DNA of 64,000 nt, from positions 2,793 through 66,792 of the forward strand of contig JBBTQY010000005.1 in NCBI GenBank assembly GCA_038065475.1. Reading direction: 5' to 3'. The DNA is from Patescibacteria group bacterium. GTDB lineage: Bacteria > Patescibacteriota > Minisyncoccia > Ryanbacterales > GWA2-47-10b. The position numbers and the translations under genes are program-made. This document shows positions 7,565-48,741 of the stretch, in pieces. Under the pieces are notes generated by a model, which had not been told where the DNA came from, made no database searches, and saw only the letters and a list, made by a program, of their open reading frames with translations. The stretch's first letter is position 1. Every line of letters begins with the position of its first letter.

Positions 7565-9763
7565 TTACCTGCGGGGTGGGCGGCCACCTCCACCGCGGGG
7601 GCGATCACCGTCTCGGCGCGGGCGGCGCTCTTCTTTCTCAGCTGTGCGTGCTTCAGTCTCCTCAGGAGTTTCTGTCATCGCACGGATAGAAAGATTGACG
7701 CGACCCATTTGATCAATGCCGGTGATTTTTGCTTCTACTTCGTCCCCTACATTCACTATATCGGTTACCTTGCCCACACGGAAGCCAGCAAGCTCTGAGA
7801 TATGTACGAGACCTTCTTGGCGAGGAGCATACTCAACCATGGCGCCAAATTCAAAGACACGTGATACTTTACCGCGAACAATTTCACCCGCAGTATATTC
7901 TTTGGTGATACCGGCAACGCGAGCCTGGGCTTTCTCAGCCGCTTCTTGGTTTGTGCCGGTGATGTAGACGATTCCTGTCTGTTCGATGTCGATGGTAGCG
8001 CCGGTCTCAGCGATGATTTCGTTGATAACCTTGCCGCCAGGACCGATGACGTCGCGGATTTTGTCTACGGGAATAGTCATTTTGATGACGCGAGGTGCGT
8101 GTGCAGGAAGAGTTGCGCGAGGTGCAGGCATGGCTTTGAGGATGACATCCATGATGCGCAATCGTGCATCGAGCGCGTCAGCGAGTGCATCACGCAAGAT
8201 TTGGAGCGTTACTCCACCTACTTTGACATCCATCTGTACGGCGGTTACACCCTCAGAGGTTCCGGCTGCTTTAAAGTCCATATCACCATGATGGTCTTCA
8301 GGTCCTTGAATATCGGTAAGAACTTTATACGTATTTTCGTCCTTCATCATGAGGCCCATGGCGATACCGCTGACGGGGCGTCGGATGGGAACTCCCGCAT
8401 CCATAAGTGCGAGGATTGATGCACAAACCGAACCCATCGATGATGAACCATTTGATGAGAGTGTTTCTGATACAAGGCGTACGGTGTAGGGAAACTCTTC
8501 TTTGGGAGGAATGACCGCCTCAAGTGCTTTTTCTGCGAGTGCACCATGGCCAATCTCACGTCGTCCTGGAGAGCCCATGCGGCCTGTCTCACCTACGGAA
8601 AACGGCGGGAAGTTGTAGTGATGCATGAAGTGCTTCTTGGTGCGTACATCCATACCTTCGATCAAGAGTTCGTCGCCAGGTGCGCCCAAGGTTACTACTG
8701 ACAAGATGTGTGTATCACCGCGGAAGAAAAGACCTGAGCCGTGGGTACGTGCGAGAAGTCCGGTTGATGCAAAAAGTGAGCGCAATTCTTTCATGCCTCG
8801 GCCGTCGGGGCGGCGATCTTTTTCGATCGCGTTTGTGTGTACGATATCATTGATAGCTTCCTCGTACATATCCGATGCGGTTCCTTTTGAGAGAGTTGGA
8901 AACTGTTCTTTGGTGGCAGTCATCCATTCAGTTTTTAAATCACCAAGCGTGTGACTGCGATGAATCTTATCAGGCATAAAGAGCGCGTCTTCCAAGCGCG
9001 GCATAAAATGCTTTTTCAAAAGTTTCTCAGCCTCTTCGGGGGCTTCTTCGATTTTTGGTGCAAATTTTTTCTTAGAAATTTTTGAGAAAATTTCACTCTG
9101 GAATTCGTTGAGTTCGTTAATGTGTTTGAGCGCAAGCTCTATCGCTTTGGCAAATTCTTCTTCGGGCATTTCTTTTGCTTTGCCCTCCAACATGTTTACT
9201 TTGCCGTCACATCCAGACACCACAAGATCAAGTACATGTGCTGCGCGTTCAGTGTCAGTTGGGTTGATGATAAATGAGCCGTCAGTCTTGCCTACGCGCA
9301 CTGAGCTTACAGGCCCTGCCCACGGGATATCAGAGGTGCCAAGTGCCAGGGACGCAGCCAAAACGGCCAAAATATCGGGACTATTTTCTTCGTCGAGTGA
9401 AAGGGTCGAGGTAACTACCTGTACATCATGACGAATGCGATGATCAAAAAGTGGGCGGATGGTGCGATCGATAAGGCGACCGATCAAGATCGCTTCCTCG
9501 GACGGACGTCCTTCGCGGCGCATAAAGCGTGAACCCAAAATGCGGCCTGCCGCATAATACTTTTCCTCGTAATCGACAGTGAGGGGAAAATATTCAACCG
9601 TTTCGCGTGCGTTGTGCGACATGACGGCGGTGGCAAATACCGTAGTACCGCCAACGGTTACTATCACCGAGCCATTGGCTTGGGATGCGATATTGTTAAA
9701 CTCGACAGTTATGGTTTTGCCAGCGATGTCGCGTGTGAAGATTTGTTTTTCAAGAGTTGTCAT
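7565..9763 (-). CDS. pnp: polyribonucleotide nucleotidyltransferase (PNPase)
   Basis: 732 aa with two RNase PH-like domains, KH and S1 (GEIVRGKVSRVFEFGAMVEY...), and an Arg/Gly-rich C-terminal tail RPRRDGDRPRGGGGRPPRR. Confidence 0.9.
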   Translation of the reverse strand: MTTLEKQIFTRDIAGKTITVEFNNIASQANGSVIVTVGGTTVFATAVMSHNARETVEYFPLTVDYEEKYYAAGRILGSRFMRREGRPSEEAILIGRLIDRTIRPLFDHRIRHDVQVVTSTLSLDEENSPDILAVLAASLALGTSDIPWAGPVSSVRVGKTDGSFIINPTDTERAAHVLDLVVSGCDGKVNMLEGKAKEMPEEEFAKAIELALKHINELNEFQSEIFSKISKKKFAPKIEEAPEEAEKLLKKHFMPRLEDALFMPDKIHRSHTLGDLKTEWMTATKEQFPTLSKGTASDMYEEAINDIVHTNAIEKDRRPDGRGMKELRSLFASTGLLARTHGSGLFFRGDTHILSVVTLGAPGDELLIEGMDVRTKKHFMHHYNFPPFSVGETGRMGSPGRREIGHGALAEKALEAVIPPKEEFPYTVRLVSETLSSNGSSSMGSVCASILALMDAGVPIRRPVSGIAMGLMMKDENTYKVLTDIQGPEDHHGDMDFKAAGTSEGVTAVQMDVKVGGVTLQILRDALADALDARLRIMDVILKAMPAPRATLPAHAPRVIKMTIPVDKIRDVIGPGGKVINEIIAETGATIDIEQTGIVYITGTNQEAAEKAQARVAGITKEYTAGEIVRGKVSRVFEFGAMVEYAPRQEGLVHISELAGFRVGKVTDIVNVGDEVEAKITGIDQMGRVNLSIRAMTETPEETEARTAEKEERRPRRDGDRPRGGGGRPPRR

Positions 9764-10292
9764 TTTCGTTTGTTGTAGATCGTTGTTTTCTAATTCTCAT
9801 AATATATTTATTTTCCGCGCCGAGGTCGATAAACTCGTCAGCTGATTCTTTAAGTTTGAGTGATGTGCTGCGGCCAAATGACATTACTTCAACGCGGCGG
9901 CCGTTGTTTTTCAAATATTCAACAAGTGGTACAAAATCGCCGTCACCCGAGCAGATAACAATCGTATCTACGGTGTTTGCGGTACGCACAGCGTCGATCG
10001 CGAGACCCACATCCCAATCAGCTTTTTTGGCGCCGCCATAAAATTCTTGGAGTTCTTTGGCGCGTGTTTCAATGCCGAGGGTGACAAGTGCATCAAAAAA
10101 TCCTTTTTCTTCACCGGTCTTGGTGCTGATGACGTATCCAAATGCACGGATGAGCTGGCGGCTTGCAACAGCAGTTTTCAAAACTTCTTTAAAGTTTACT
10201 CGTGCGCCGAAAAGAGAGCGCGCTGAATGATACAAATTTTGCGCGTCGATGAAAACAGCGACGCGCTGATCTTTATGCTTTCTCAAGTCCAT
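9750..10292 (-). CDS. NYN-domain (LabA-like, PIN-related) protein
   Basis: VAVFIDAQNLYHSARSLFG ... TIVICSGDGDFVPLVEYL, the typical NYN/LabA signature. Overlaps the pnp start by 14 nt. Confidence 0.75.
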   Translation of the reverse strand: MDLRKHKDQRVAVFIDAQNLYHSARSLFGARVNFKEVLKTAVASRQLIRAFGYVISTKTGEEKGFFDALVTLGIETRAKELQEFYGGAKKADWDVGLAIDAVRTANTVDTIVICSGDGDFVPLVEYLKNNGRRVEVMSFGRSTSLKLKESADEFIDLGAENKYIMRIRKQRSTTNENDNS

Positions 10293-10594
10293 TATTTTTT
10301 GATGCCGAAGTGTCGTTGGAGCTCCAAAAGCTTTTTCGAATCACCTTTGGCGAGATACTCGAGCAGCGACTTGCGCTTTGCGACCATTTTCAAAAGACCG
10401 CGGCGAGAGTGGTTGTCTTTGCGGTATTTTTTAAGATGATCGGCGAGTCGATCGATTTGCGCACACAAAAGGCCGATCTGAACTTCCGAAGAGCCCGTAT
10501 CCGTCTCATGGACGCGGTGCTTTTCAATAAGTTTTGTTTTCTTCACTGTTGTCAGCATGGAAAACATTCTAACAAACCTTTGGTCTTTTGACAA
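10292..10594 (-). CDS. rpsO: 30S ribosomal protein S15
   Basis: TGSSEVQIGLLCAQIDRLADHLKKYRKDNHSRRGLLKMVAKRKSLLEYLAK. The N-terminal extension suggests the true start may be the internal Met at ~10567. Confidence 0.9.
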   Translation of the reverse strand: MSKDQRFVRMFSMLTTVKKTKLIEKHRVHETDTGSSEVQIGLLCAQIDRLADHLKKYRKDNHSRRGLLKMVAKRKSLLEYLAKGDSKKLLELQRHFGIKK

Positions 10595-10660
10595 GTCCCC
10601 CGTTTTTTTCTATACTGCCACTGGATCGCGCTCCGCAACTGGGCGTGATGCTCCTCCAAA

Positions 10661-10748
10661 GGGTGGTTCCGGTCCGCGCATACGGCGCAGATCACCGGCT
10701 CCGGCTTCCCTCCCCGGAGCTGGTCTCTTAGGGGCCGGAACCACCCCC
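10661..10748 (-). ncRNA. candidate small SRP RNA (ffs)-like long hairpin; strand not certain
   Basis: GGGUGGUUCCGGUCC (10661-10675) pairs with GGGGCCGGAACCACCC (10731-10746), closing an ~88-nt hairpin. On the minus strand the apex reads CAGCUCCGGGGAGGGAAGCCGGAGCC, resembling SRP domain IV CAGGUCCGGAAGGAAGCAGCC, and the 5' end is GGGGG. A T-run follows on the plus strand, so the strand is ambiguous. Confidence 0.35.
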
Positions 10749-10785
10749 TTCTCAGTTTTTACCGCTCAAGCGGGCGCACTATAAA

Positions 10786-10822
10786 GGCGAGTCTGATCAC
10801 AGGCTCGCCTTTCCCATTTTTT
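10786..10822 (+). terminator. hairpin plus T-run just upstream of the recombinase gene
   Basis: GGCGAGTCTGATCACAGGCTCGCC followed by TTTCCCATTTTTT. Confidence 0.5.
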
Positions 10823-10842
10823 GCTATACTGATTGTAATATT

Positions 10843-11730
10843 GTGCGACCCATGACGATTGAAAAAATAACACGCGAATTTTTGGAAGATTTGGAGCTCG
10901 AGCGCGGGCGTTCACCAAAAACGATAGAAAACTATGATCACTACCTCAAGCGTTTTTTTATGCACGCCAAAGTTTCCAACCCCGCGCATATTTCTGACGA
11001 ATTAGTTAGATCATATCGTCTCGCACTCAACCGCACAGGACTTTCTCCTCGCACGCGCAATTATCATCTCATCGCGTTGCGTATGTTTTTAAAATATTTA
11101 GCCAAGCGCGATATCAAATCACTCGCACCCGAACGTGTGGAGTTAGCGAAACTCGGCGATCGAGACATCGATATACCGCATGAAGGAGACTTAGATCGAT
11201 TACTGGGTGCGCCAAAAACTGATGCCCTGCAAGGACTTCGCGACCGCGCGATCTTAGAACTTTTATTTTCAACTGGACTTCGTGTATCAGAACTCTGCGC
11301 GCTCAATCGCGACTCACTTGATCTGGGGCGTGATGAATTTTCCGTGCGCGGCAAGGGTTCAAAAATTCGTATCGTGTTTCTTTCAAAGGATGCCAAAGAT
11401 GCAATCCGTGCGTATCTTGCAAAACGCGGCGATATGTCAGATGCGCTTTTTGCAGGCACGCAAAAGAAAAATCCGGCGCGACTCACCTCGCGTCAGATTG
11501 AACGTCTTGTTAAACGCTACGCGATTGGCGCGGGCATTCCAGGAAAGGTGACACCCCATACATTGCGACATTTGTTTGCGACTGATCTTTTGCTCAATGG
11601 TGCTGATATCAGATCAGTACAGGCAATGCTTGGTCATTCATCGATCACGACGACGCAAATCTATACACACATGACCGACAGACAACTTCGCGAAGTACAT
11701 AAAGCTTTTCACGGGAAGCGCAGAAAATAA
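10843..11730 (+). CDS. tyrosine site-specific recombinase, XerC/XerD-like
   Basis: HTLRHLFATDLLLNGADIRSVQAMLGHSSITTTQIYTHM (R-H-R-Y catalytic region). N-terminal SAM-like core-binding domain (KTIENYDHYLKRFF). 295 aa. Confidence 0.85.
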   Translation: MRPMTIEKITREFLEDLELERGRSPKTIENYDHYLKRFFMHAKVSNPAHISDELVRSYRLALNRTGLSPRTRNYHLIALRMFLKYLAKRDIKSLAPERVELAKLGDRDIDIPHEGDLDRLLGAPKTDALQGLRDRAILELLFSTGLRVSELCALNRDSLDLGRDEFSVRGKGSKIRIVFLSKDAKDAIRAYLAKRGDMSDALFAGTQKKNPARLTSRQIERLVKRYAIGAGIPGKVTPHTLRHLFATDLLLNGADIRSVQAMLGHSSITTTQIYTHMTDRQLREVHKAFHGKRRK

Positions 11731-11762
11731 TTTTTAAAAAATATTTGAGTATAAAAACGTAT

Positions 11763-12237
11763 GGCGGGGAGCTCTGGTGAGCTCCCCGCCGTGCCTTCAT
11801 CGACGGATCTCTAGGATCTCTCCTCCTCTACGTCTGAGGACCTTCTTCGGCGCGTTCGTTTCTCTGGCAGGCGCTGTGTCTCTCCTCGGGCCGTCGAGTA
11901 CTCGGAAATGATCTCCGTCTTCGACGCCCCGTGCACAGTCCCGCGAGAAATCACTTGTAGCGGTAAGTGTCCAACCCATCTTCCCCCTCGTAGTGCTGGA
12001 TTCCCTCCGGAACCCTCTTTGAAGTGCCTTACCTTTCCCCGTGCCGTAGTGGGTACGAGACTTGCCTCTCCCCTTCACGATCGGTAGCTACTTCTTCCCT
12101 GAATTGCGGAACCCTCCCTTTGTTCCGACGTTTTTTGGGAAGTAGATCGCTACGTGCTCGCGCGAAGAGATGGCCGTTTCCTCGCCTCATGCACCCTCCT
12201 TGCGGGGTTCGCCAGCCCTGAGGGCCAGCTTGGTTTC
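11763..12237 (-). ncRNA. candidate large structured ncRNA of unknown class (GC-rich, purine-rich transcript)
   Basis: About 475 nt with no ORF longer than 93 aa on either strand, about 60% GC against a ~48% background. Strong strand asymmetry: plus is C/T-rich and minus is G/A-rich. Minus-strand promoter-like TTGCAA-16-TAGAAT (plus 12246-12273) and a minus-strand intrinsic terminator GGCGGGGAGCUC-ACCA-GAGCUCCCCGCC plus AUACGUUUUUAU (plus 11763-11790). Internal repeats GGGUUCCG (x2) and CACUACG...GGGG (x2). No match to RNase P, tmRNA or 6S consensus that I could recognise by eye. Confidence 0.3.
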
Positions 12238-12347
12238 TGTTTAGTATTCTATACCTGCCTTAAAATATTGCAACAAAGCTCAAAGTATGGTCTTTTGCGT
12301 AGTCAAGAATATGTTGAAAAATAAGGGTTTTTAGGTGCTTTCGATAC

Positions 12348-12376
12348 TTGACTTTTCTTCTATTATTTGGTATAAT
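12348..12376 (+). promoter_or_regulatory. sigma70-type consensus promoter for the three-gene operon
   Basis: TTGACT (12348-12353), 17-nt spacer, TATAAT (12371-12376). About 110-nt leader containing hairpin AAGCCC-CAAAA-GGGCTT (~12418-12437). Confidence 0.65.
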
Positions 12377-12492
12377 AGATGTAGAAATCAGTAACGACCG
12401 TTCATTGACTATGAACTCAGAAAAGCCCCAAAAGGGCTTGAAAATAAAGAAAAAAACGATAACAACGATGCGCAGATGCGCGCGGAGGAAGA

Positions 12493-13287
12493 ATGAGACA
12501 GGGAAACAGAGGCAATAGCCGTGGGCGGAGCAATCCACCCCAACTCACTGTGGATCTCAAAGTTGACTTCGAAAAAGTCGGCGATGAGGTTCATGTCACC
12601 CTTAGCGCCCTTGTTCATCAAGGGAAGGAGCTCGTATCAGGTACGAGCGTCCAGTTCTTCACCCGCGGTACGAAGGTCGGTTCACCCAAAGTGACCGATC
12701 CGCAGGGTCGTGCGAAAGCCGTCTATGCTTACTCCGGCGATTGCATTGCTGAAGTACAGATCGTGGACAAGGCAGTGTGCGATTCCGAACCTGTCCGCTT
12801 ACCCGACGAATTCAAGTCGAAGCGGGCGAAGCTCCCGAACCAGATCCATGTGAGCCCAGCAGGGCGTGGCCGAGTTTTTGTCTCGGTGGCAGTTCTCGCT
12901 CAGGACGATGCGCCTATCAATGGTGCGGCCGTCAATATCTTCGAGGCGGGAGAGTCGCGTGATCCGAAAGTGATCAAGCGAAGTATTCCACTCGAGACAT
13001 TGACGACCAATGAGCGCGGTGCGCTCGATCCGGTGCCGTACTTCGATGTAGCACTGATGCAGGGCAAGCGTCGCCTGTTCGTTCATGTGGCTGGCACGAA
13101 GCTCCAAGCTTTCGTGACCTGTCGCGCATCGAGCATTCGGCCGCCCAAGGCGCCCGCGGATCTCCCGCGGGTTGCCGCAGCTTTCAGGAGGAAACTCTTC
13201 GGTACGCGTTCGATTCGTGCGTTCTTGCACGGTATCCGTATGGGTGGCGAGGCTCTTCGTGAACAGAGAAAGGGAGGCTCAAAGTGA
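12493..13287 (+). CDS. hypothetical protein (Arg-rich N-terminus, probable beta-rich domain), GC-rich
   Basis: 264 aa, about 60% GC. RBS GGAGGA upstream. No recognisable motif. Stop overlaps the next start (ATGA). Confidence 0.55.
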   Translation: MRQGNRGNSRGRSNPPQLTVDLKVDFEKVGDEVHVTLSALVHQGKELVSGTSVQFFTRGTKVGSPKVTDPQGRAKAVYAYSGDCIAEVQIVDKAVCDSEPVRLPDEFKSKRAKLPNQIHVSPAGRGRVFVSVAVLAQDDAPINGAAVNIFEAGESRDPKVIKRSIPLETLTTNERGALDPVPYFDVALMQGKRRLFVHVAGTKLQAFVTCRASSIRPPKAPADLPRVAAAFRRKLFGTRSIRAFLHGIRMGGEALREQRKGGSK

Positions 13288-14465
13288 TTCGGATCAATCT
13301 CCTTGGCGGGAAGTTGTCTCCGGCTCATAGTGGGCCGCCTCAACCAAATCCTCTCCCCCGTGGAGAGGTGCGTTCAGTGCTTGAGCAAGGTGCCTTTCTG
13401 ATCTGCATCGCGGTCCTCTCTTTTCTGGGGGCTGTCGCTGCGATCGGTTGGTGTCTCAATTCGGTATACGTTGGGAATGGCGCGTCATGGCCTGCGATCA
13501 TTATCGCGGCCGCACTGCTGTTCTTGATGTACCGCGTCGTCGTCATCGCTGATAGGCGTTGGTGGGAGAGCAAGCGAGCAAAGGTACTTGCGGGTGCGGT
13601 CGAGGACGAAAGTCCCGAGCCGACTCTCCTCAAGCCTGAGGATCGGATATTCGATGAAGTACTCGCAGATGATGAATTGCCTCGGCGTTGGAGAAAAAAG
13701 AAGTATCCACGCTACAAGGTGTGGTGCCGAGCGAAGCGGATCCGCAAGATTCGCCGCAAGCAAAGTCTCAAGACGTGGTTTGCCAAGCAGAAGCAACGCT
13801 TCGTAAACCTCTGGGGCTGGGTAAAAGGCTCCTGGAAGAAGAAGCGGAAGAAGAGCAAGAAAAAGGAGACGCCGTCTCCCTTCCTTGCATGGTTCATGCA
13901 TCTGGGATTCACGCTCCGCGTGAGCAACAATGCACGAGCGACGCTGTTTCTACTCGTCTCCGCATTCTGGTTCTGCATCAACGTCGTCACGCTCATTGCG
14001 AGCTTCGTGTTCGCACCGAACAGGCTGACGGATACACAGGAGCAGAGCTACAACTACATGCTCCATGGTGTGCGAGCAACCGATCTCGAGATGTCATCAA
14101 CCCTCACCCAGGTTCTTACGTGGTGTTGGTCGATCGTCTCGTCTCTGTTCGTAAACCCCTGGTCATGGATTCTCTGGTTCTCCTTCGCACTCTTTAGCTT
14201 CGTCTACTTCGTAGTAGCACAGCGCGAAGAGTTCGCGGAGGTAATCGATAGTGCGCGTGAGACGGTCTCGCAGCGCGCCACAACCGACTTGCCCGACCAA
14301 CCGTCTGGGCAGCCGAGCGCTCATCCGCCGGCAGGAGCTGGTGGTGGAGCGCTCGGAAACTTCTTGAAGAATCGCGCGCGTTTCGCCGTAGAAGATCTTT
14401 CGTGGGATCTCATCACGAGGGGCTTCCAGAGAGGCATAGGCGCGCTGCGTAGAGGGGCAATATGA
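13284..14465 (+). CDS. hypothetical polytopic membrane protein with a highly basic loop
   Basis: 393 aa. N-terminal IRINLLGG (PilN-like N-terminus only). Four or more predicted TM helices. Lys/Arg-rich segment RRWRKKKYPRYKVWCRAKRIRKIRRKQ...SWKKKRKKSKKKE. Translationally coupled (ATGA) to both neighbours. Confidence 0.55.
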   Translation: MIRINLLGGKLSPAHSGPPQPNPLPRGEVRSVLEQGAFLICIAVLSFLGAVAAIGWCLNSVYVGNGASWPAIIIAAALLFLMYRVVVIADRRWWESKRAKVLAGAVEDESPEPTLLKPEDRIFDEVLADDELPRRWRKKKYPRYKVWCRAKRIRKIRRKQSLKTWFAKQKQRFVNLWGWVKGSWKKKRKKSKKKETPSPFLAWFMHLGFTLRVSNNARATLFLLVSAFWFCINVVTLIASFVFAPNRLTDTQEQSYNYMLHGVRATDLEMSSTLTQVLTWCWSIVSSLFVNPWSWILWFSFALFSFVYFVVAQREEFAEVIDSARETVSQRATTDLPDQPSGQPSAHPPAGAGGGALGNFLKNRARFAVEDLSWDLITRGFQRGIGALRRGAI

Positions 14466-15988
14466 CGATTTCGAATCGTGTTCTCTCTGGCCTCGGCGTT
14501 GCCGCGGCCCTACTTCTCTGGTTTTCCGGTCTCTTCTCGGCCTGGTTGCTTTGTCTGGCCGCGGCGGTTGTCATCATTGGCTTCCTTGCGGCGCAGCTGA
14601 CCCCGACGTTCACGCGTCCTATCCTCATCGCTACGGCAGTTATCATCGTCGTGGCGTTGGGGGTGGAGGCCTTTCGTACAAGCTTCTTCACGAACGAGGA
14701 CGACCGTTTTTCCTACACCGCACTCGGCAACTCGGAACTCGAGGCTGACATGGTGTGGGCGGAAGGGATCGATCCTCATGCTCGGGAGCTTCGCGGACGT
14801 CTTGCGACCAAGTGTCGAAATACGGAAACCGAAGTGACCGAGCAGATCGACAAGAGGATGCAGGCGATCAATGCAAAGAACTTTCTGCGTCCTGCGCAGG
14901 TCAAGCGCGTACGGCGCCAGATCACTCGCCTTCAGGAGTTTCGCGCACTGTGCCGTGAGGCTATCGTGCAGTCGGAGGCGCCAGAGGAAGTGACGCCGGC
15001 AGTCTCGGCATCAAGCGGTGCGAGTATCACGGGATGGATCCCGGCGTTCTCGTTCGCTTGGCCCAGCATGCTGGTGCTCACAGGTATCGTGTTTCTCGTG
15101 TGGTGGTTTCTGCCGCGTGGCAGTGCTACCGCGGGAATCACGAAGCTCGCCGGGTTCGCGCTACTCGTTTTATTGGTAGCGCAGGGCTGGCAGCACGTTC
15201 TTCCGGAGTATTGGAAGGATGCGCTTGCTCGCCGCGGGCTCACGACGAGCCTGCATGCGGTGACCGCGATCGATTCGCCCACAGCTCCCGCGCGAGACTA
15301 CATCCGCGATCGTTGTGAGGCGAGACTCCAAGAGAAGACGGAGGCGCTCAAGGTCACTTACCCGACGCTCTCGGATGAAGCGGCTCTCGAAGAGGCCGGC
15401 AAAGAGCTTGCCAAGATCGAGAGCTTCGGCTACGAGTGCGGTGCACTCGTAGCGCCGCGGGTCACGCCCCAGCTCGCTGAAAGCGTGCCGAGTCAGGCAA
15501 TCTTTCCGATCGCCGTCGCGGTCGGTCTGATATTGGTACTGCTCCTCGCCGCACTTTGGGGCAGGGGTAGTGCACTTGGCACCACCGTGTCGGCGATGCT
15601 CATCATCGCGGCCATGGGTGTCATCTTCTACTACGTCAGTATGAGAGTCAGCAGCCCCGAGATTGCACTACCCGAACTCAACATGGCGGAGTTCGAAGAG
15701 ACTGCCTTGAACGCTCCGCAATGGGGAATCGTATCGGTGACCTTCAGAATACCTCCTCATAAACATGTAGGAGAATTCCAAATCGGGCGTCTCAAGCTCA
15801 CGCTCAAAGACGCCAAGATCGGGGGTAAGAACTACAAGTTCATCGCTCAGGGGCCCGCTCCACGCAACGAGCAGCTCTACGCTGGCCCGTCGGCAAGTCT
15901 GCCATCAGGGACAGCTCGAATGTTCCTCACCAACGACGGCAACGAGCCGATGAAGGTCACTCTCCGTTTCCAGAAGCACACAGTCTGA
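14462..15988 (+). CDS. hypothetical polytopic membrane protein
   Basis: 508 aa, six or more hydrophobic helices, C-terminal soluble domain (LKLTLKDAKIGGKNYKFIAQGPAPRNEQLYAGPSASLPSGTARMFLTNDGNEPMKVTLRF). GC-rich. Confidence 0.55.
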   Translation: MTISNRVLSGLGVAAALLLWFSGLFSAWLLCLAAAVVIIGFLAAQLTPTFTRPILIATAVIIVVALGVEAFRTSFFTNEDDRFSYTALGNSELEADMVWAEGIDPHARELRGRLATKCRNTETEVTEQIDKRMQAINAKNFLRPAQVKRVRRQITRLQEFRALCREAIVQSEAPEEVTPAVSASSGASITGWIPAFSFAWPSMLVLTGIVFLVWWFLPRGSATAGITKLAGFALLVLLVAQGWQHVLPEYWKDALARRGLTTSLHAVTAIDSPTAPARDYIRDRCEARLQEKTEALKVTYPTLSDEAALEEAGKELAKIESFGYECGALVAPRVTPQLAESVPSQAIFPIAVAVGLILVLLLAALWGRGSALGTTVSAMLIIAAMGVIFYYVSMRVSSPEIALPELNMAEFEETALNAPQWGIVSVTFRIPPHKHVGEFQIGRLKLTLKDAKIGGKNYKFIAQGPAPRNEQLYAGPSASLPSGTARMFLTNDGNEPMKVTLRFQKHTV

Positions 15989-16048
15989 GTTCACAGAAAA
16001 ATATCGTCGCCCCTGCAGTATAGGGGCAAACCAAAAAACCGAGGCGTC

Positions 16049-16092
16049 GCATGAATCATCGTGCGGCGCCTCTTTCCTTTTTATGCGACCCT
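16049..16092 (+). terminator. operon terminator
   Basis: GAGGCGTCGCA...TGCGGCGCCTC hairpin followed by TTTCCTTTTTAT. Confidence 0.55.
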
Positions 16093-16143
16093 TTTCCCGT
16101 GCTACTATATATGGTATAAGAGTTAGGTAAATCAAGGGCACGA

Positions 16144-16215
16144 GTCCTCGTGGTGAAATGGATATCACGACTGGCTTCGAACCAGTTATTGGGGGTTCGA
16201 GTCCCTCCGAGGACA
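16144..16215 (+). tRNA. tRNA-Arg (anticodon TCG)
   Basis: Cloverleaf: acceptor GTCCTCG/CGAGGAC, D-arm GTGA-AATGGATA-TCAC, anticodon arm ACTGG-CTTCGAA-CCAGT, T-arm GGGGG-TTCGAGT-CCCTC. CCA not encoded. Confidence 0.8.
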
Positions 16216-16293
16216 CAGCTGAAAGCTGTTCTCATATAGGAGGGACGAGAACGGAGCAAAGGATTTTGCTCCGCGGGGTTTGCGAGAAGCAAA

Positions 16294-16315
16294 CGAGTCC
16301 CTCCGAGGACACAGC
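16294..16315 (+). repeat. 22-bp direct repeat of the tRNA-Arg 3' end (copy of 16198-16219)
   Basis: CGAGTCCCTCCGAGGACACAGC occurs at 16198-16219 (tRNA T-arm/acceptor plus 4 nt) and again at 16294-16315. Confidence 0.8.
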
Positions 16316-16339
16316 GATACTTTTTTATTTTTTTAATTT

Positions 16340-16412
16340 CCACTCGTAGCTCAGTTGGTAGAGCAGTCGCCTCTTAAGCGAACGGTCGTAGGTTCGATCC
16401 CTACCGAGTGGA
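16340..16412 (+). tRNA. tRNA-Lys (anticodon CTT)
   Basis: Acceptor CCACTCG/CGAGTGG, D-arm GCTC-AGTTGGTA-GAGC, anticodon loop CTCTTAA, T-arm GTAGG-TTCGATC-CCTAC. Preceded by a T-rich run and a TGGTATAAG-type extended -10 further upstream. Confidence 0.8.
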
Positions 16413-16512
16413 CAATAACCAAAGTTATTGTCCACGGCAGCTCCTCGCGCGATAGCGCGACGATATGAAAAGCTGCCGCAACAATAAGCCGGGGGCGTAG
16501 TTCTATATAAAT

Positions 16513-17970
16513 ATGTCAAAAATTCCAAAAGAAATAATCTCTATCATCCAAACTTTAGAGGGCGCCGGCTTCGAGGCGTTTGCAGTTGGCGGTTGCGTGC
16601 GCGATCTTCTCATCGAGCGCAAACCGAAAGATTGGGATGTCACCACGAGTGCGATACCCGAAGATATTTTGCGCTTGTTTCCTGATAGCAAATATGAAAA
16701 TGATTTTGGTACGGTGTGCGTATTTTCTCAAAATCCGTCTGAGGCATCGCTTGCGATGATTGAGGTGACCCCCTATCGTACCGAGGCACAGTACTCGGAC
16801 AAGCGCCACCCTGACCGCGTTGAGTTTGGTAAATCACTCGAAGAAGATTTGGCGCGGCGCGATTTTACCATCAATTCACTGGCACTTAATGTAAAAACTG
16901 ATGAGGTGATAGATTTATTTTCTGGCAAGCGCGATTTTCGTGAAGGGCTTATCCGTGCAGTTGGCAATGCCGAAGAACGCTTTTCAGAAGACGCGTTGCG
17001 CATCATGCGCGCATTGCGCTTGTCAGCCGAGCTTGGTTTTCAGATTGAAGACGCGACACTCGCCGCCATCAAAAAAACCGTAAAACTTTTACGTTTCATT
17101 GCCAAGGAACGTATTCGCGACGAGTTTTCAAAGATCATCCTCTCCCCCACTCCGCACGAAACGCTCGAGCTTATGCGCGCGTTGGGTATTTTAAAACTCG
17201 TGTTACCAGAGCTCGAAGAAGGTGTAGGCGTGGGGCAAAATAAGCATCATGTCTATACCGTGTGGGAGCATAATCTCTACGCGCTCAAATACGCGGCGTC
17301 CAAAGAATGGTCACTCGAAGTGCGTATGGCAGCCCTTCTTCATGATGTAGGTAAGCCACGCTCAAAGCGCGGTGATGGACCGGACTCTAGTTTTTATGGT
17401 CATGAAATAATTGGTGCCAAAATGACTACGACTATTTTGGGTCGTCTTAAATATTCAAAACAGTTTATCGACAAAGTATCAAAACTCGTGCGCTATCACC
17501 TCTTTTATTACAATGTCGATGAGGTTGGCGAAGCATCAGTACGCAGGCTCATACGCAAGGTAGGTCCCGAAGATATGGAAGACTTGATAAAAGTGCGCTT
17601 CTGCGACAGGATTGGTTCGGGAGTGCCCAAGGCTGAACCATATAAATTGCGTCATTTTCGTTTTGTTATCGAGAAGCTTTCACGCGATCCAATCTCGGTC
17701 AAAATGCTCAAAGTAAACGGCGGCGATATCATGAAGATTGCGAATCTCGAACCAAGCCCCAAAGTTGGCCAACTGCTCAATATCTTGCTTGAGGAAGTGC
17801 TTGATGACCCCAAGCGCAACACTAAAGATATTTTGCAGGCGCGTATAAAAGAGCTTGCGGGCATGACCGAGCGCCAGCTCAAGGCACTTGCTGATGGCGC
17901 CAAGAAAAAATCATCAGCACTCGAAGAAGAAGAAGTGACGAAAATAAAAGGAAAACACAGGGTGAAGTAA
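16513..17970 (+). CDS. cca: CCA-adding tRNA nucleotidyltransferase (PolyA polymerase/CCA family with HD domain)
   Basis: GGCVRDLLIERKPKDWDVTT head domain, RDFTINSLA, HD-domain motif HDVGKP. Consistent with seven of the eight tRNAs here lacking an encoded CCA. Confidence 0.85.
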   Translation: MSKIPKEIISIIQTLEGAGFEAFAVGGCVRDLLIERKPKDWDVTTSAIPEDILRLFPDSKYENDFGTVCVFSQNPSEASLAMIEVTPYRTEAQYSDKRHPDRVEFGKSLEEDLARRDFTINSLALNVKTDEVIDLFSGKRDFREGLIRAVGNAEERFSEDALRIMRALRLSAELGFQIEDATLAAIKKTVKLLRFIAKERIRDEFSKIILSPTPHETLELMRALGILKLVLPELEEGVGVGQNKHHVYTVWEHNLYALKYAASKEWSLEVRMAALLHDVGKPRSKRGDGPDSSFYGHEIIGAKMTTTILGRLKYSKQFIDKVSKLVRYHLFYYNVDEVGEASVRRLIRKVGPEDMEDLIKVRFCDRIGSGVPKAEPYKLRHFRFVIEKLSRDPISVKMLKVNGGDIMKIANLEPSPKVGQLLNILLEEVLDDPKRNTKDILQARIKELAGMTERQLKALADGAKKKSSALEEEEVTKIKGKHRVK

Positions 17971-22228: not shown

Positions 22229-22418
22229 TGAAATAAGAAAAACACTCACTCGGCTTTCTAGAGAGGAGGTCTGCAGGATTACGCGAAGTCTTGTAAAAAG
22301 TCTGATTTTGTGCTATAGTTTCTCCGAACTTAGAACCTCGATAACATAAATTTCTAGTTGAAACACCCGCATCTAAAGCCGAAACTGCTTTTTGATGCCG
22401 AGATTAGGAGGAAGGGAA

Positions 22419-24077
22419 GTGAAGAGACTTTTAATTCTCTTGCTCGCACTTGCGAGCTTGAGCTTGCGACCGCCCGGGACGGCGGCGCAGAGTTCGATCA
22501 ACGTCCCGGACGTGACGGGCGACCAGCTCGTCATGTTCTACGACGCGCGCTCATCGCGCGTGCCGTTCATGACCATCTCGAACCCGGCGCTCGAGCGTGT
22601 CGTTCTGAGGGCTGACTTCTACAACATCGACCTCACTTTCGTCATCGCCTCCGAGACCATTGTTCTCGAAGGCGGTAGTAATGTCGTCATCGATCCGACC
22701 GGAGTCGATGGTGGCATCGTCAACGGCAACGCAGGTCTTGCGGTCATCACTCCCACGCGGAGCGAGACCGACATCCAACCGGTGGTACCTCCAGCGCCCC
22801 TCATGGGGAATTGGACCTTGGCGAATCTCGATCTCGCCTCTGCGTTCGGCGAGAACATCTTCGGGCGTCTCGCGGTGCGGCAATCGGGCGAGCGGGCGAG
22901 TGCATGGAGTACCGTCGATGGTGATGCGGTGCGCTACCAGCGCATCGATCCTCACGCCGTGGTCATCCCTGCGCACTACAATCCCCAAGACTTGGGTCCT
23001 GTGGAGTTCGATGGTAACCGCGTGGTCATTGCGGTCTTCCGTGACGTCTACGACGGCGGCTTTCGTCTCGCTCCGCAGTTCGAGCGATTCGAAGCTTCAT
23101 TCATCGAACGCTTCGGATACCAGGTGGCCAAGACCCAGATCAACGTCGATGGCGTGCTGATGAGCGATCTCGTTTCGCTCGCTGGTGCGCAGCTTCGTTC
23201 GTCTGGAAAGGTGTTCTTCCGTCGTCTCGACCGTGCAAGCGGCGGGAACGCATTCGGCGTCTTCAGTCAGTCGCTCGGCACATTCGGTGCCGGTGGCCGC
23301 ATGATCGCCGTGGAGAACGTGCCGGATTTTTCACAAGCTCCAGCGCCTACTGGGACGCCGACGCCGGAGCCTACTGATCGTCCGACTCCGCGTCCCACCC
23401 CTACCTTCACGCCTCGGCCTACGCCGAGCCCGACACCAATTCCGACTCGGACGCCACAACCTACGGCGACTCCGAAGAAAACTCCGGCACCGACCGCAAA
23501 ACCTACGCAGACCCCGCGGCCGACGGCAACACCGAAGCCGACGGTGACTGCAAAGCCAACGCCGAGTCCCACACGGACGCCGTCGCCTACGGCGATTCCG
23601 ACCAACACTCCGCGGCCTACGGAAACTCCGAGGCCGACGGTAACACCGATCAAGACTCCGACGCCTACTCCGACCAGGACACCCACTCCGTCGCCGAGTC
23701 CAACGCCTACAATGACTCCGACCCCAACGCCGTCTGCAACTCCAACGCAGACGCCAACTCCGACACCAACGCAGACTCCGTCGTGTATCGACAACGACAA
23801 CGACGAGTACTGTGCGGGAAGCGGCCCCAGCAAGGACTGCAATGACTCGAATGCATCGGTAAACCCCGGTGCGACCGAGCAATGCAACAACATCGACGAC
23901 AACTGCCGCAATGGTACTGACGAGGACTTCCCCGAGAAGGGAGGAGTGTGCTGGCGCCTCGTTGGCACTGCCTGCTGGCGTGGCGAGAAGCGCTGCGCGC
24001 AAGGAGGTGGCGGGGGAGGCAACACCATCCAGTGTCTGCCGCTCTCGATAGAGCCTGACTCAAACCAGTGCAACTAA
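22419..24077 (+). CDS. secreted protein: N-domain + Thr/Pro-rich linker + MopE-like Cys-rich (putative metal-binding) C-terminal domain
   Basis: Probable GTG start 8 nt after AGGAGG (22405-22410). Signal peptide [23 protein letters not shown]. About 140 aa of (T/P) repeats. C-terminus [49 protein letters not shown]...CWRGEKRC matches the DCDDxNxxxNPGAxExCNGxDDNC MopE-like motif. GC-rich (~62%). Confidence 0.7.
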
Positions 24078-24296
24078 AGAAACAATCATAGGAGGGCGAT
24101 CATCATCCTCCGAATCATGGCCCAGTACGCGTTCCACGCGCGCTGGGCTTTTTTAATACAATGACTTGCAAAAAAGCTGATTTTATGATATAGTTTTTCG
24201 GAACTTCAGGTCCTTGTTAATTCCTAGTTTTTGAGAAGAAAAAAATCGCACCCCAGAGATAAGGGTGCTCAACCATTCAACCGAAGGAGAGAAACC

Positions 24297-25781
24297 ATGA
24301 AGCGTTCGCTGTTTGGATTGCTGATCGTTCTCGCGCTGTTCATGCCCCTGCTGGCCTGTGCCAGCGACATGCCGCGTGAGCTCGATGACTACTGCGTCTT
24401 CGCCAACAAGAAGTTGGTGCTCGGCACCAACGCGGCCGTGCTCGATGGTAGCGCTGGCGTCAACAAGTCGAGTGCGCGTGCCTCGAAGGTCCTCATGACC
24501 ATGAGGCCGTACTCGATCGTCGATCCGGATTTCCCGACCGCCGCATCGAGCGTCAAGATGGCAACGTACGCGACAGTAGGGGAGTTGTTCCGCAACTTCC
24601 TGACTTTGTCGGGGCCTGTGAACATCGACGAGGAGTATAGTGGGACGTTCCCCGTGCTCACTCTGCCCGAGCTCCCGTTCTTCTTGCCGGAGGACGACCA
24701 CATCATCCTACAAGAAGGGACGAAGTGGCTCGGTCCCGGGCAGTACGGGTTTCTCGAGGTAGGACCTGGGGCCACCGTCATCCTGACGGGCGGCGAGTAC
24801 CACTTTCTGCAGACCTGGTTTCGCTCGGGCTCTCAGCTTTACTACGAGAGTCCAGTCGACGTTCGTGTCCAGGGAAAGTTCATGGGTGATGAAGGGATCG
24901 TGATGCGTCCGGCCCTTTGGGCTGATGTATTGCCTCACGAGGCAAGCTTCGCGATTGGTGGGCCGATGGTGACCTTCGGGCCACTCGGCTCTTACGAGGG
25001 GATGTTCTATGCTCCTCGCAGTACCGTTCGAGTTCAGAGGCAGACGACGATCACCGGCCAGTTGGTCGGCAACAAGATCCGATTTGCCGACAACGCACGG
25101 TGCGTCTGGGCTGCGGCGGAAATCACGACGACTCCAACCCCCACGCCAAGTCCAACACCAACCCCAACGAGGACTCCAAGTCCAACGCCAACGTTGACAC
25201 CGACAGCGACTCCGTCGCCAACACCGACGAAAACGCCGACCCCAACTCCGACTCGTACACCAACCCCGACCCCGTCGGCAACACCAACATCCGTTCCCAC
25301 GCTGTCGCCAACGCCAAATCCAACGGCGACCCCGACTCCTTTGCCGACGGCCACGCCAACGCCCACACCGACCAGGACGCCGACCCCCGCGCCGACGCAG
25401 ACGGCGACGCCAACCGCGATTCCCACCCCAACACCCTCGGTAGCGCCGACGGCAACTCCCACCCCGACTCCCGTGCAGTCACCCATCTGCGTCGACAACG
25501 ACAACGACGAGTACTGTTTAGGGCAAGGGCCGGGGAAGGATTGCAACGATGCGAACGCATCGGTGAACCCCGGCGTCGTCGAACAATGCAACAACATCGA
25601 CGACAACTGCATCAACGGCACCGATGAGGACTTTCCCGGCAAGGGTGCGGTGTGCTGGCGCCTCGTCGGCACTGCTTGCTGGCGCGGCGAGTCACGCTGT
25701 GCCCAGAGTGCTGGCGGGGGAGGCAACACCATCCAGTGCCTACCTCTGACGTCTGAGTCAGATTCTTCCAAATGCAACTAG
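24297..25781 (+). CDS. lipoprotein paralogue: different N-domain + Thr/Pro-rich linker + near-identical MopE-like Cys-rich C-terminal domain
   Basis: RBS AAGGAGA. Signal [21 protein letters not shown] with LLAC lipobox. C-terminal ~100 aa are about 85% identical to the 22419 protein ([41 protein letters not shown]...). Confidence 0.7.
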
Positions 25782-28265: not shown

Positions 28266-28778
28266 TTAGTCGCTACACTTCCATCCCGGTTCACGGTTTG
28301 CTTTCCAGTAGAAGCTTCTTGTAGATTCGAGTGTTGCGCTTAGCGAGAGTGTATTGTCGGCAATATAACAATGATATCTGTATGTTAGAGACGGCGTGAT
28401 TATAGGCGGTGGGATGCACGGTTCATTTGTTGGATCGCGGGGAACTGCACCGCCAAAATAGGGTTCGAGAAATTTGAGCCAAGGATCATTTATGCCATTA
28501 TTTGCTTGATCGTTGCTATAATCCCATTGGCCACAATCAGAGTCACCACCTAAACCACCACCAAAACCATCGTTTATGGTGCGTGGGAGATATCCGTTTG
28601 TATCATAGTACAAATGCAGTGCGGTATAGATGCTGTGCAGATCTTCTTTACGCCGTGCGTCGCGCGCTTTTACGCGAGCCGAATTTACGCCTGCGAGTAC
28701 GATGGACGACAAAAGGCTGATGATCGATACTACAACCATTAGCTCAATCAGCGTAAAGCCATGTTGCTCACGGCGCAT
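28266..28778 (-). CDS. type IV pilin (prepilin with class III signal peptide); candidate major pilin
   Basis: MRREQHG|FTLIELMVVVSIISLL has the canonical GFTLIE cleavage and methylation motif. 170 aa. Isolated from the main pilus locus. Confidence 0.8.
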   Translation of the reverse strand: MRREQHGFTLIELMVVVSIISLLSSIVLAGVNSARVKARDARRKEDLHSIYTALHLYYDTNGYLPRTINDGFGGGLGGDSDCGQWDYSNDQANNGINDPWLKFLEPYFGGAVPRDPTNEPCIPPPIITPSLTYRYHCYIADNTLSLSATLESTRSFYWKANREPGWKCSD

Positions 28779-39344: not shown

Positions 39345-40298
39345 ATGAATACTTTTCACGTCATCTCACAATGTCGCAAATATAACGTTTCGTTGTGGAC
39401 TTGCCCGCCTTTTCTCTTTATTGTCATGGGGTTCGTCAATATCGCAGGTATGTTCACAACGGCTATTGCCGCTCAGCGCTTTTCTGATGATCCTGCGATA
39501 GTTATTATCTCGGTTTCGATGATGGCAGCCTTTCTCTTTGTCGTTGGCAATGCGGTAGTTTCGTCATTTCAACGCTTGGCAGATGCCTCTCGCATCAAGT
39601 CAGAGTTCGTCAACATCGTCTCTCACCAATTGCGCTCGCCACTCTCAGCTATCAAGTGGCAGCTCGAACTTATGCTCGACCAGATGAAGTCGGTGACAGG
39701 AGACGTGGCGGTTACTATGGGTACGATTAGCCGGCAAAATGAGCGCATGATCGCGCTCGTCAATGATTTGCTCGAGGTTAATCGCATTGAAGATGATCGT
39801 GTCATCTTGCGTCCGACAAAAATAGCTATCGATAGTTTTGTCGAACAGATTGCCAATGGTTATAAGCCGCTTGCAGAGCAGACAAACGAAAAACTGACGT
39901 TTGTGAGCGAGGCCAGGCCCCTCATAGTATTTGCCGATGAGACAAAGTTGCGCTGGGTAACCGAAAATCTTATCGATAATGCTATACGCTATACAAAGGC
40001 GGGTGGAGATGTGACGGTGAAAGTATTGCGCGCCAAAAATATGGCACGTGTTGAAGTGACCGATTCGGGTATCGGTATCCCGGTAGGCGATCAAGCTATG
40101 ATCTTCCAGAAATTTTTCCGATCAGAAAATGCCGTACGAGCGCGCGCAGAAGGTACAGGTCTCGGGCTCTACCTTGTGCGTTCGCTGGTAGGTGCTATGG
40201 GCGGCAAAGCAGGTTTTGCCTCTATGGAAGGTAAAGGGTCGACATTCTGGTATACGCTCCCGCTCGTCGAGAACAGCGAGCCACCCCAGAAAAAATAA
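39345..40298 (+). CDS. membrane-anchored sensor histidine kinase (no extracytoplasmic sensor domain)
   Basis: Two TM helices, then the HisKA H-box VSHQLRSPLSAIKWQLELM, followed by HATPase_c N, G1 and G2 boxes (NLIDNAIRYT, DSGIGIP, GTGLGL). Confidence 0.8.
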   Translation: MNTFHVISQCRKYNVSLWTCPPFLFIVMGFVNIAGMFTTAIAAQRFSDDPAIVIISVSMMAAFLFVVGNAVVSSFQRLADASRIKSEFVNIVSHQLRSPLSAIKWQLELMLDQMKSVTGDVAVTMGTISRQNERMIALVNDLLEVNRIEDDRVILRPTKIAIDSFVEQIANGYKPLAEQTNEKLTFVSEARPLIVFADETKLRWVTENLIDNAIRYTKAGGDVTVKVLRAKNMARVEVTDSGIGIPVGDQAMIFQKFFRSENAVRARAEGTGLGLYLVRSLVGAMGGKAGFASMEGKGSTFWYTLPLVENSEPPQKK

Positions 40299-40319
40299 TT
40301 ATAAGGTTATATATTTTGT

Positions 40320-40685
40320 ATGAAAAAACTTCTCATTGTTGAAGACGAAGCAGCACTCCAAGACGCTCTTCAAAAAGTATTTACCACAGAAGGCTACGAG
40401 GTATCGCAGGCGTTCGACGGCGAAGAAGGCATTAAACTCGCAAAAGAAAAGAAGCCAGATATGATTTTACTCGATCTCATTTTGCCAAAAAAACACGGCT
40501 TTGAGGTACTCCAGGAAATCAAAGCTGATGCATCGCTCAAAGATGTCCCGGTATTGGTACTCACCAATCTTGAAGAAAGCACTGAGGTGATGAAAGCAAT
40601 CGAGCTTGGCGCACGCGGATATTTGGTCAAAGCAAACTACGCACTCAAGGAAGTTCTTGCAAAGGTAAAAGACATTCTCGGATAA
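40320..40685 (+). CDS. stand-alone response regulator receiver (CheY/PilH-like)
   Basis: LLIVEDE...DMILLDLILP...K; 121 aa, no output domain. Confidence 0.85.
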   Translation: MKKLLIVEDEAALQDALQKVFTTEGYEVSQAFDGEEGIKLAKEKKPDMILLDLILPKKHGFEVLQEIKADASLKDVPVLVLTNLEESTEVMKAIELGARGYLVKANYALKEVLAKVKDILG

Positions 40686-40698
40686 GGATTATTCCAGG

Positions 40699-42453: not shown

Positions 42454-42456
42454 GCC

Positions 42457-43704: not shown

Positions 43705-43705
43705 T

Positions 43706-45319: not shown

Positions 45320-45321
45320 TC

Positions 45322-48700: not shown

Positions 48701-48741
48701 TATACCATTCTCAGAAGGGGCACAGCTGGTATAATAAAACC

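Follow-up and report, generated by a model that had tools for sequence, protein, structure and literature searches.

Background

Hypervariable, recombining gene modules centred on an immunoglobulin (Ig)-domain protein have been described in Thermococcales, where they are named VARTIG modules and their function is unknown (Makarova et al. 2021, PMC8416519). The Ig-like domain Big_1 (PF02369) is found in the inverse autotransporters invasin and intimin. The OLE RNA and the OapA protein of Firmicutes form a membrane ribonucleoprotein, in which a large structured non-coding RNA (ncRNA) lies beside membrane-protein genes with basic regions. Arrays of VirB2-like pilins and type IV secretion systems (T4SS) of Patescibacteria have been described by Quinonero-Coronel et al. 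2025 (PMC12102498) and by Wang et al. 2023, the latter as cited in PMC12857230. A large part of bacterial diversity belongs to the Patescibacteria, which live attached to other microbes and about whose host recognition and phage resistance almost nothing is known. The locus described here, a three-gene operon designated A-B-C, lies in a 64,000-nucleotide (nt) stretch of the genome of a Patescibacteria group bacterium of the Ryanbacterales (assembly GCA_038065475.1, contig JBBTQY010000005.1, positions 2,793 to 66,792), referred to below as the window.

The operon consists of gene A (12493-13287, plus strand, 264 amino acids (aa), ATG start), gene B (13284-14465, plus strand, 393 aa, GTG start, overlapping the stop codon of A) and gene C (14462-15988, plus strand, 508 aa, ATG start, overlapping B). 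The three products are annotated by NCBI as hypothetical proteins of a Patescibacteria group bacterium, and identical A, B and C proteins are encoded on a 304-kb contig from Hainich groundwater (ERZ1292624). A first-pass annotation of the window had picked this operon as its standout locus and as an undescribed membrane-associated module, and both judgements held. The locus is the most unusual of its neighbourhood; neither B nor C is accounted for by any family of Pfam, NCBIfam, PADLOC, PHROGs or the PDB, and A is recognized only through Ig-like domains. The main new result is that the operon is hypervariable, apparently through recombination, in an island between near-invariant housekeeping genes, and it is the fastest-evolving locus in every neighbourhood examined, with a promoter among the strongest matches there. 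The reading favoured here, tentatively, is that A, B and C may be subunits of one Patescibacteria-specific, recombination-diversified complex across the cytoplasmic membrane that acts as a recognition or conflict module.

Hypervariability and mosaicism

The variable island (11750-16000) contains A-B-C and a divergent ncRNA unit, and is bounded by the 3' end of xer on one side and by a block of tRNA-Arg, tRNA-Lys and the gene for the CCA-adding enzyme on the other. In comparisons of the window with the related loci L004, L005 and L015, the flanking genes showed 75-92 % nucleotide identity in nearly all 200-nt bins, and about 80-90 % in the overall profile, against 4-60 % between the xer stop codon (~11750) and ~16000. 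Flank-level identity recurred within the island in patches at 12200-12400 (promoters and leader), 13000-13200 and 14200-14500. The Xer, CCA-adding enzyme, NYN, S15 and PNPase proteins are 88-97 % identical between these genomes, with a nonsynonymous divergence (dN) of 0.02-0.06 and a ratio to synonymous divergence (dN/dS) of 0.02-0.05, whereas identity falls to 20-61 % in the three module proteins, for which dN is 0.28-1.2 and dN/dS 0.2-0.6, rough values given that dS is saturated.

Divergence is also uneven within single proteins. Domain D1 of protein A, a Big_1-like Ig domain (aa 18-105, 12544-12807, plus strand), is closest to that of the distant locus L007 (45 % over 86 aa) and cannot be aligned with L004 or L005. 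Domain D2, which is prealbumin/CarboxypepD_reg-like (aa 115-212, 12835-13128, plus strand), and the C-terminus of A are 54-71 % identical to L004 and L005 and about 24 % identical to L007. The same contrast with the flanks was observed in a second genomic setting, in which A and B may be fused (AB): between L021 and either L020 or L023 the flanks are 68-88 % identical, AB 23-24 % and C 21-32 %, and the adjacent VirB2-like pilins, at 22-51 %, have evolved more slowly than AB and C. Overall, the rate of evolution of the module is 10-30 times that of its flanks, and its mosaicism is one of whole domains.

Rapid drift in the loosely constrained beta-sandwich and loop regions of a housekeeping envelope or scaffold complex, serving membrane organization or as a division/envelope scaffold and without any part in conflict or recognition, would also produce a divergent locus. 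Such a complex would fit the fixed syntenic position of the module in two deep contexts, its presence in every related locus examined, its near-consensus promoter and conserved leader, its mean dN/dS below 1, and the absence of a match at E<=0.1 to the defence systems of PADLOC-DB v2 for 10 module proteins from four loci. It is nevertheless unlikely, because D1 in protein A and, in protein C, the C-terminal half have been replaced outright between genomes with 88-97 % identical flanks, while the internal patches have remained flank-like. In L015, moreover, A and B are fused and a tblastn search with A, B and C of the window gave no match, though the flanks are 92-95 % identical. This unevenness points to replacement of alleles and domains, not to drift.

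The base composition of the island differs from that of its surroundings. The G+C contents of A, B and C are 57, 56 and 59 %, close to the 60 % or so given in the first-pass annotation, versus 47 % in both flanking genes (those for Xer and the CCA-adding enzyme), and the G+C contents at third codon positions (GC3) are 0.60, 0.65 and 0.69, versus 0.43-0.48 in the same two genes. Module GC3 exceeds flank GC3 in almost every locus. Since it is raised in the orthologous modules of all the related genomes, the high G+C content is a lasting property and a recent horizontal acquisition was ruled out as its cause. A recombination hot spot subject to GC-biased gene conversion might account for it.

Two further ideas were considered. 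A diversity-generating retroelement was discounted since neither repeats of the template/variable type nor a direct repeat longer than 22 nt occurs in 10500-16600, and no reverse transcriptase gene is present in the locus. An element integrated at the tRNA gene was not supported, as xer keeps both its synteny and 92-96 % of its sequence and tRNA-Arg is located 3' of the module.

Operon structure and expression signals

The local gene order is PNPase, NYN, S15 (minus strand), xer, a non-coding gap of ~760 nt, A-B-C, tRNA-Arg, tRNA-Lys and the CCA-adding enzyme. A Shine-Dalgarno sequence precedes each of the three start codons. The A/B junction reads AAGTGA, a GTGA overlap with AGGGAGG just upstream, and the B/C junction is an ATGA overlap with AGAGGGG just upstream, so that the translational coupling proposed in the first-pass annotation stands but its ATGA overlaps reduce to one. 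A consensus scan placed a sigma-70-type promoter, TTGACT-17-TATAAT with a TG-extended -10 element, at 12348-12376 (plus strand). The site had been called perfect; it matches the consensus at 11 of 12 positions, the -35 element being TTGACT, not TTGACA. Downstream of the operon a terminator scan found an intrinsic terminator at 16041-16082 (plus strand), consisting of a 14-bp GC-rich stem followed by TTTCCTTTTT.

Folding and an alignment of the four closest genomes confirmed a structured 5' leader of ~110 nt (12383-12492, plus strand) with three hairpins, the third of which abuts the Shine-Dalgarno sequence GGAGGAAG. Its minimum free energy (MFE) is -23.7 kcal/mol (z = -3.49), and none of 200 shuffled sequences was as stable. 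Mean column identity of the leader in the alignment is 78 %, above that of the coding region, and hairpin 2 carries compensatory changes across the four genomes. The leader hairpin AAGCCCCAAAAGGGCTT at 12422-12438 is kept in L005 with compensatory changes; on the minus strand a run of T comes after it, so that it could also serve as a terminator or insulator for antisense transcription. A weak Rfam match of this hairpin to CRISPR-DR17 (E 0.95) was attributed to chance. Judged from its open reading frames, Shine-Dalgarno sequences, overlaps, terminator, dN/dS below 1, the predicted fold of A and its recurrence, A-B-C is a genuine operon, which would be co-transcribed.

Distribution and genomic contexts

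Word-indexed searches recovered three relatives of A, none of B and one of C, and scans of GTDB and of metagenomes with an alignment of A recovered one and three loci, respectively. An exhaustive profile search with A and its three relatives retrieved 83 representative clusters at E<=1e-3. About 60 of these are small proteins (200-260 aa) with the same layout as A, and the remainder are large multi-Ig proteins that matched solely via Big_1-like repeats. The sources that state a taxon, a minority, are all Patescibacteria or Ryanbacteria, and among these sources the module appears to be Patescibacteria-specific. A search of PHROGs gave just three marginal single-member matches among 48 A-family members, and no match to A or C turned up when 50,697 phage records were searched by tblastn.

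The comparison of gene neighbourhoods proposed in the first-pass annotation showed that A-B-C, or AB-C, recurs in all the related loci read, with its genes side by side and coupled in L004, L005, L007, L015 and L017-L023, and that it occurs in two contexts. Context I (xer, gap, A-B-C, tRNAs, CCA-adding enzyme) is found in the window, L004, L005, L015, the Ryanbacteria loci L007-L011 and L022. In context II, A-B-C or AB-C, sometimes accompanied by a second pair B'-C', is followed by a convergent array of two to three T4SS_pilin/TrbC genes, beyond which lie SBP, a methyltransferase and GyrA. This context was found in L017-L021 and L023, and a seventh locus (L024) is incomplete. In 11 of 12 related loci a sigma-70 promoter that matches the consensus at 11 or 12 of 12 positions precedes A by 90-270 nt; all 12 positions match in L017, L018 and L019.

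The second pair B'-C' was observed at 9096-11076 of L020, 10386-11709 of L021 and 3936-5382 of L023. B' is soluble and helical (~140-176 aa) and C' is polytopic (~281-310 aa). In L007/L011 and L019, which have an A-B'-C' layout, the two genes after A resemble B' and C' more than B and C. C and C' of L021 share a C-terminal domain (43 % over 68 aa, E 4e-13); a single grouping of the B' and C' proteins of L007, L019 and L021 is tentative, this C-terminal domain in L021 being the only significant similarity.

The VirB2-like T4SS_pilin/TrbC arrays were located at 9530-12323 and 14696-15073 of L018, 11809-14112 of L021 and 5462-7246 of L023. In L018 and L021 they are interspersed with genes for 23S_rRNA_IVP/bAvd-like four-helix bundles, and neither a reverse transcriptase nor VirB4 was found in the array stretches read (L018, L021, L023).

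The position of the module beside a convergent array of two to three pilin genes in all seven context II loci might suggest that it is an accessory part of the Patescibacteria T4SS or VirB2-like pilus, for example a divergent base or anchor component or a pilin-handling factor, which co-evolves with hypervariable pilins. The neighbouring pilins do evolve fast. VirB2-like pilins of Patescibacteria are reported to be hypervariable, and to be essential in one Saccharibacterium (PMC12102498, PMC12857230), and VirB6 and VirB8 are reported as "missing or extremely divergent" in several classes (PMC12102498). The seven loci, however, share their downstream synteny (SBP, methyltransferase, GyrA) and so amount to about one evolutionary observation. 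The 64-kb window contains no T4SS gene, and no virB4 was present in any locus read. Searches for T4SS families (VirB2, VirB3, VirB6/TrbL, VirB8) at a Pfam threshold of E<=0.1 gave no match for the window proteins or for B, B', C and C' of L004, L005, L007, L015 and L017-L022. An accessory role in a T4SS is thus quite unlikely.

Protein A

Protein A consists of a basic N-tail (aa 1-17), D1, D2 and a basic C-terminal helical hairpin (aa 224-262, 13162-13278, plus strand). The Arg-rich N-terminus reported by the first-pass annotation is present, and its statement that no motif could be assigned holds for B and C but not for A, whose two domains become visible through the family. Window A alone matches Pfam Big_1 (PF02369) at E 0.092 and 13.3 bits, under the cut-off of 34.9. 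When 48 A-family members were scanned singly, Big_1 was matched in 24 (best E 1.3e-14), CarboxypepD_reg in 15 and MG4 in 11. A PDB profile search with the family matched intimin at 6.8e-6, and also SdrD and invasin.

The structure-based search that had been recommended was made with an AlphaFold2 model of A. The predicted local distance difference test score (pLDDT) was only 49.9 with a 4-sequence alignment versus 89.7 with the 48-sequence alignment, and in the latter model residues 18-101 and 117-211 form beta-sandwiches and residues 224-262 form a helical hairpin. Its nearest folds are intimin and invasin. Family members begin with an R/K/Q/N/G-rich N-tail, basic and RGG-like throughout the family, and a first Ig-like domain with the motif VQFF..G....TD.NGRA, and continue with another beta domain, after which come a basic segment, GP(P)RWRKPP, and a C-terminal helix that is likewise basic. 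None of the 48 members was found to have a signal peptide or an N-terminal transmembrane segment (TM), and the 264-aa protein contains no additional domain that could be a beta-barrel translocator. As modelled, A thus consists of two beta-sandwiches in tandem (Big_1 plus prealbumin-like) behind a basic N-tail, and it has no signal peptide.

Protein B

Alignment with L004 and L005 divided B into a conserved core (aa 196-393, 13869-14462, plus strand) and a window-specific extension (13293-13868, plus strand) made of two insertions (aa ~4-93 and ~120-180). The core contains, in order, an NNARA motif, a TM, an acidic loop of ~56 aa (YN(Y), TDLEM), a second TM, REEF, LPDQPSGQPS and an amphipathic C-terminal helix. 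The extension begins with IRINLLGG and holds a further TM hairpin (aa ~35-88) and a K/R-rich core (aa 134-195, RRWRKKK...KKKRKKSKKKE). The basic loop, which would be cytoplasmic, contains 39 K/R within 130 aa. Both insertions are missing from L004 and L005, despite flanking genes that are 88-97 % identical to those of the window. The extremely basic loop noted in the first-pass annotation is therefore real but is not a family feature, and is, judged by this comparison, a lineage-specific elaboration.

In the orthologues of B, which begin with MIRSIESWEP or MTRPIERWES, the R-rich segment next to the membrane is shorter, and MIRINLLGG was found only in the window. The PilN profile (PF05137) gave no Pfam match to B at E<=1, and genuine PilM (PF11104, 2.1e-37; 53389-54453) and PilN (PF05137, 28.2 bits, cut-off 22.8; 54456-55007) are encoded together at 53389-55007. 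The PilN-like start once ascribed to B was therefore set aside as a chance likeness, lying as it does in a window-only insertion of a protein without a PilN match, in a genome stretch with a true PilN elsewhere.

At least eight A-B fusion proteins of 370-500 aa were found (P0020, P0026, P0030, P0045, P0063, P0066, P0069 and P0070), and when the C-terminal halves of these fusions were compared by hhalign with the cores of separately encoded B proteins, the probability was 98.9 % and E was 2.5e-17. These fusions in relatives imply that A and B function together. In both B and the fusions, K/R-rich segments lie before TM1 and after TM2 and the loop between the TMs is acidic, which by the positive-inside rule would place the Ig domains and both tails in the cytoplasm. 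B would then expose only its acidic loop of ~55 aa outside, and A would be cytoplasmic, with its basic helices at the C-terminus probably docked on the tails that B has in the cytoplasm. Localization of all three proteins was deduced from charge distribution and TM parity.

Protein C

The polytopic protein with a C-terminal soluble domain predicted by the first-pass annotation was recovered. C has three N-terminal TMs (aa 5-70), a helical domain with an ADxxWAExIDPH motif and a Cys pair (aa 71-200), a TM pair (aa 201-242), a second soluble domain (aa 243-347), a second TM pair (aa 348-391) and a C-terminal beta-rich domain (aa 392-508, 15635-15985, plus strand). Its sole word-search relative, P0002, is 61 % identical across the first 205 residues and cannot be aligned beyond them. 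A common plan was drawn from a seven-sequence alignment, and TMs and loop charges were analysed on 8 homologues. The plan comprises a helical domain of ~120-140 aa with an (A/S)D(L/M)xxAE(K/R)IxPH motif, a TM pair with a short positively charged loop (TM4-TM5) and a beta-rich C-terminal domain of ~110-135 aa. With a crude TM picker, the number of N-terminal TMs was three in 6 of 8 homologues, one in L021 and two in L023. The odd TM count and the charged short loop would put both large domains outside, so that C is predicted to expose its helical and beta-rich C-terminal domains on the cell surface.

The additional soluble domain and TM pair set window C apart from this plan. In one pairwise comparison the second soluble domain (residues 253-337) was weakly similar to the first helical domain of an orthologue (86-175, E 0.012), which suggests an internal duplication of the unit of TM pair and helical domain in the lineage of window C.

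These topologies bear on a further alternative, in which A is an exported invasin-like adhesin, B and C are its export or anchoring machinery, and the variability is ordinary surface-antigen variation. The Big_1, invasin/intimin and SdrD-like folds are indeed typical of surface adhesins, the module is hypervariable, and pilin arrays adjoin it in other lineages. This alternative is very unlikely, however, as none of the 48 family members has a signal peptide or N-terminal TM, the K/R-rich flanks and acidic loop of the fusion hairpin would put the Ig domains inside, and no beta-barrel or sortase signal is present.

Divergent non-coding RNA

On the opposite strand, upstream of A, a promoter and terminator scan delimited a GC-rich RNA of ~480 nt (11763-12273, minus strand), with a promoter TTGCAA-16-TAGAAT (12273-12246, minus strand) and a terminator (11790-11763, minus strand). 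Both signals are conserved in four genomes (window, L004, L005 and L015), and the promoter pair also occurs in L022. The RNA has a G+C content of 59 % and an MFE z of -4.84 against shuffled sequences, and no coding frame was found in it. The homologues in the relatives are ~150-200 nt longer at the 3' end. Rfam searches of this RNA and five homologous loci, at gathering thresholds and at E<=10, found tRNAs only. No hallmarks of RNase P or tmRNA were seen by eye, and ARAGORN found no tmRNA. An RNAalifold consensus of the four sequences was weak, with a covariation term of -1.12. A covariance model (R1) of the 5' 300 nt recovered solely its training loci (window, L004, L005 and L015) and found no ncRNA in L007, L011, L022 or L017-L021, all of which carry the module.

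The module thus exists elsewhere without a detectable ncRNA homologue, and a joint module with the ncRNA is not supported. The functional tie drawn in the first-pass annotation was dropped, and its question of whether the module always co-occurs with such a segment was answered in the negative, the RNA being found beside the operon in one syntenic clade only. The ncRNA is a real feature of the island in that clade, and appears to be a co-resident of the module, not a required component. It is extremely improbable that operon and ncRNA form one ribonucleoprotein by analogy with OLE RNA and OapA, with the A tail and B loop binding RNA: the divergent arrangement with conserved promoters, the structured non-coding RNA and the RGG-like A tails would suit it, but R1 is confined to four close genomes, L017-L019 have other genes upstream of the module and a gap of just 370-520 nt, the extreme B loop is window-only, no complementarity of at least 18 nt exists between the ncRNA and the operon mRNA, and Rfam gave no match, OLE included.

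Proposed function

If A-B-C is a recombination-diversified recognition or conflict complex, the outer domains of C and the loop of B would contact a variable outside partner, which may be the surface of the host bacterium, given an epibiont lifestyle, or a phage. This contact would be coupled through B to the cytoplasmic Ig module A, in which the variable D1 and the basic tail may bind a ligand in the cytoplasm; candidates are a protein, a nucleic acid and an anionic lipid. Selection that is frequency-dependent or driven by an arms race would favour swaps of alleles and domains between lineages, made by homologous recombination through the conserved flanks and internal conserved patches, and such recombination may also raise GC3 through GC-biased gene conversion.

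Several points weigh against this reading. Its link to hosts or phages is an inference only, and PADLOC has no match for the module. The strong constitutive promoter and fixed syntenic position resemble a core function more than an accessory conflict system, and the high divergence could be partly relaxed constraint. The dN/dS values are rough and come from few alleles. The topologies of A, B and C rest on simple hydropathy and charge counts, and the cytoplasm is an unusual location for Big_1 and prealbumin-like domains, which are typically extracellular.

A bolder version, which is doubtful, would make A-B-C (in some lineages with its paralogous pair B'-C') a new trans-envelope recognition or immunity class of ultrasmall epibionts, a two-sided sensor or adaptor with the variable surface domains of C on one side and the membrane-tethered Ig-like domains of A on the other, domain-shuffled like antigen-recognition loci. 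Such a system, to which the neighbouring VirB2-like pilin arrays may contribute, would set the range of hosts or the resistance to phages. More generally, if the recognition complex favoured here mediates host or phage recognition, its alleles would be host-range markers and an experimental handle. Even otherwise, the locus offers a clean case of recombination-driven allele replacement in a reduced, highly syntenic genome.

Other features of the window

A Cu-binding_MopE motif was noted in three large proteins (22392-24077, 24231-25781 and 60529-62655). The genes at 22392-24077 and 24231-25781 have a G+C content of 61 % and GC3 of 0.68-0.71, and their products are 75-77 % identical to L005 over ~60 % of their length, versus 85-97 % for most housekeeping neighbours. 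In the genome of the window, a high GC3 is thus associated with genes that evolve fast and are specific to the lineage. Genes of a type IV pilus, including several N-methyl pseudopilins, are present at 39345-55528 and 28266-28778. They encode a PilB-like ATPase (40699-42453) and PilC (42457-43704), in addition to the PilM and PilN mentioned above, and the cluster encloses two open reading frames of ~950-980 aa without a Pfam match (45202-48150 and 50472-53339). A 22-nt sequence, CGAGTCCCTCCGAGGACACAGC, is repeated exactly and in direct orientation, once as the 3' end of tRNA-Arg(TCG) (16198-16219) and again 96 nt downstream, before tRNA-Lys (16294-16315). It looks like an att-type integration/excision scar or a partial tRNA duplication.

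Comparison with known systems

The proteins of A-B-C, the Ig-like domains of A apart, show no detectable similarity to any named family, and in this, as in having an ncRNA that does not travel with the module outside one clade and does not match OLE in Rfam, the locus differs from OLE RNA and OapA. With invasin and intimin A has a domain fold in common but not a system. A lacks their signal peptide, LysM or beta-barrel translocator and C-type lectin tip domain, and is predicted to be cytoplasmic and tethered to the membrane through B. The VirB2-like pilin arrays and T4SS of Patescibacteria are, like the module, typical of this group, chromosomal and fast-evolving, and adjoin it in the seven context II loci; A, B and C, however, have no detected homology to T4SS components, and AB and C evolve faster than the pilins.

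The VARTIG modules may be regarded as the nearest conceptual relative; no sequence relationship was found, although no direct test of homology was made. They too are centred on a protein with Ig domains, followed downstream by variable partners that include membrane proteins, recombine between lineages, and have been discussed in terms of conflict or self/non-self recognition; and in A-B-C, as in VARTIG, domains of the Ig protein are replaced between lineages inside a conserved module. The VARTIG Ig protein is large, whereas A is small (200-320 aa), has no signal peptide, and is predicted to be cytoplasmic and tethered by a TM hairpin, itself an unusual arrangement for a tandem-Ig protein. VARTIG belongs to Thermococcales, and A-B-C is bacterial, with a fixed three-gene architecture and a strong promoter. 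The phenomenon of a hypervariable Ig-centred module is thus already known, and is here built in Patescibacteria from undescribed families, B and C belonging to no described family.

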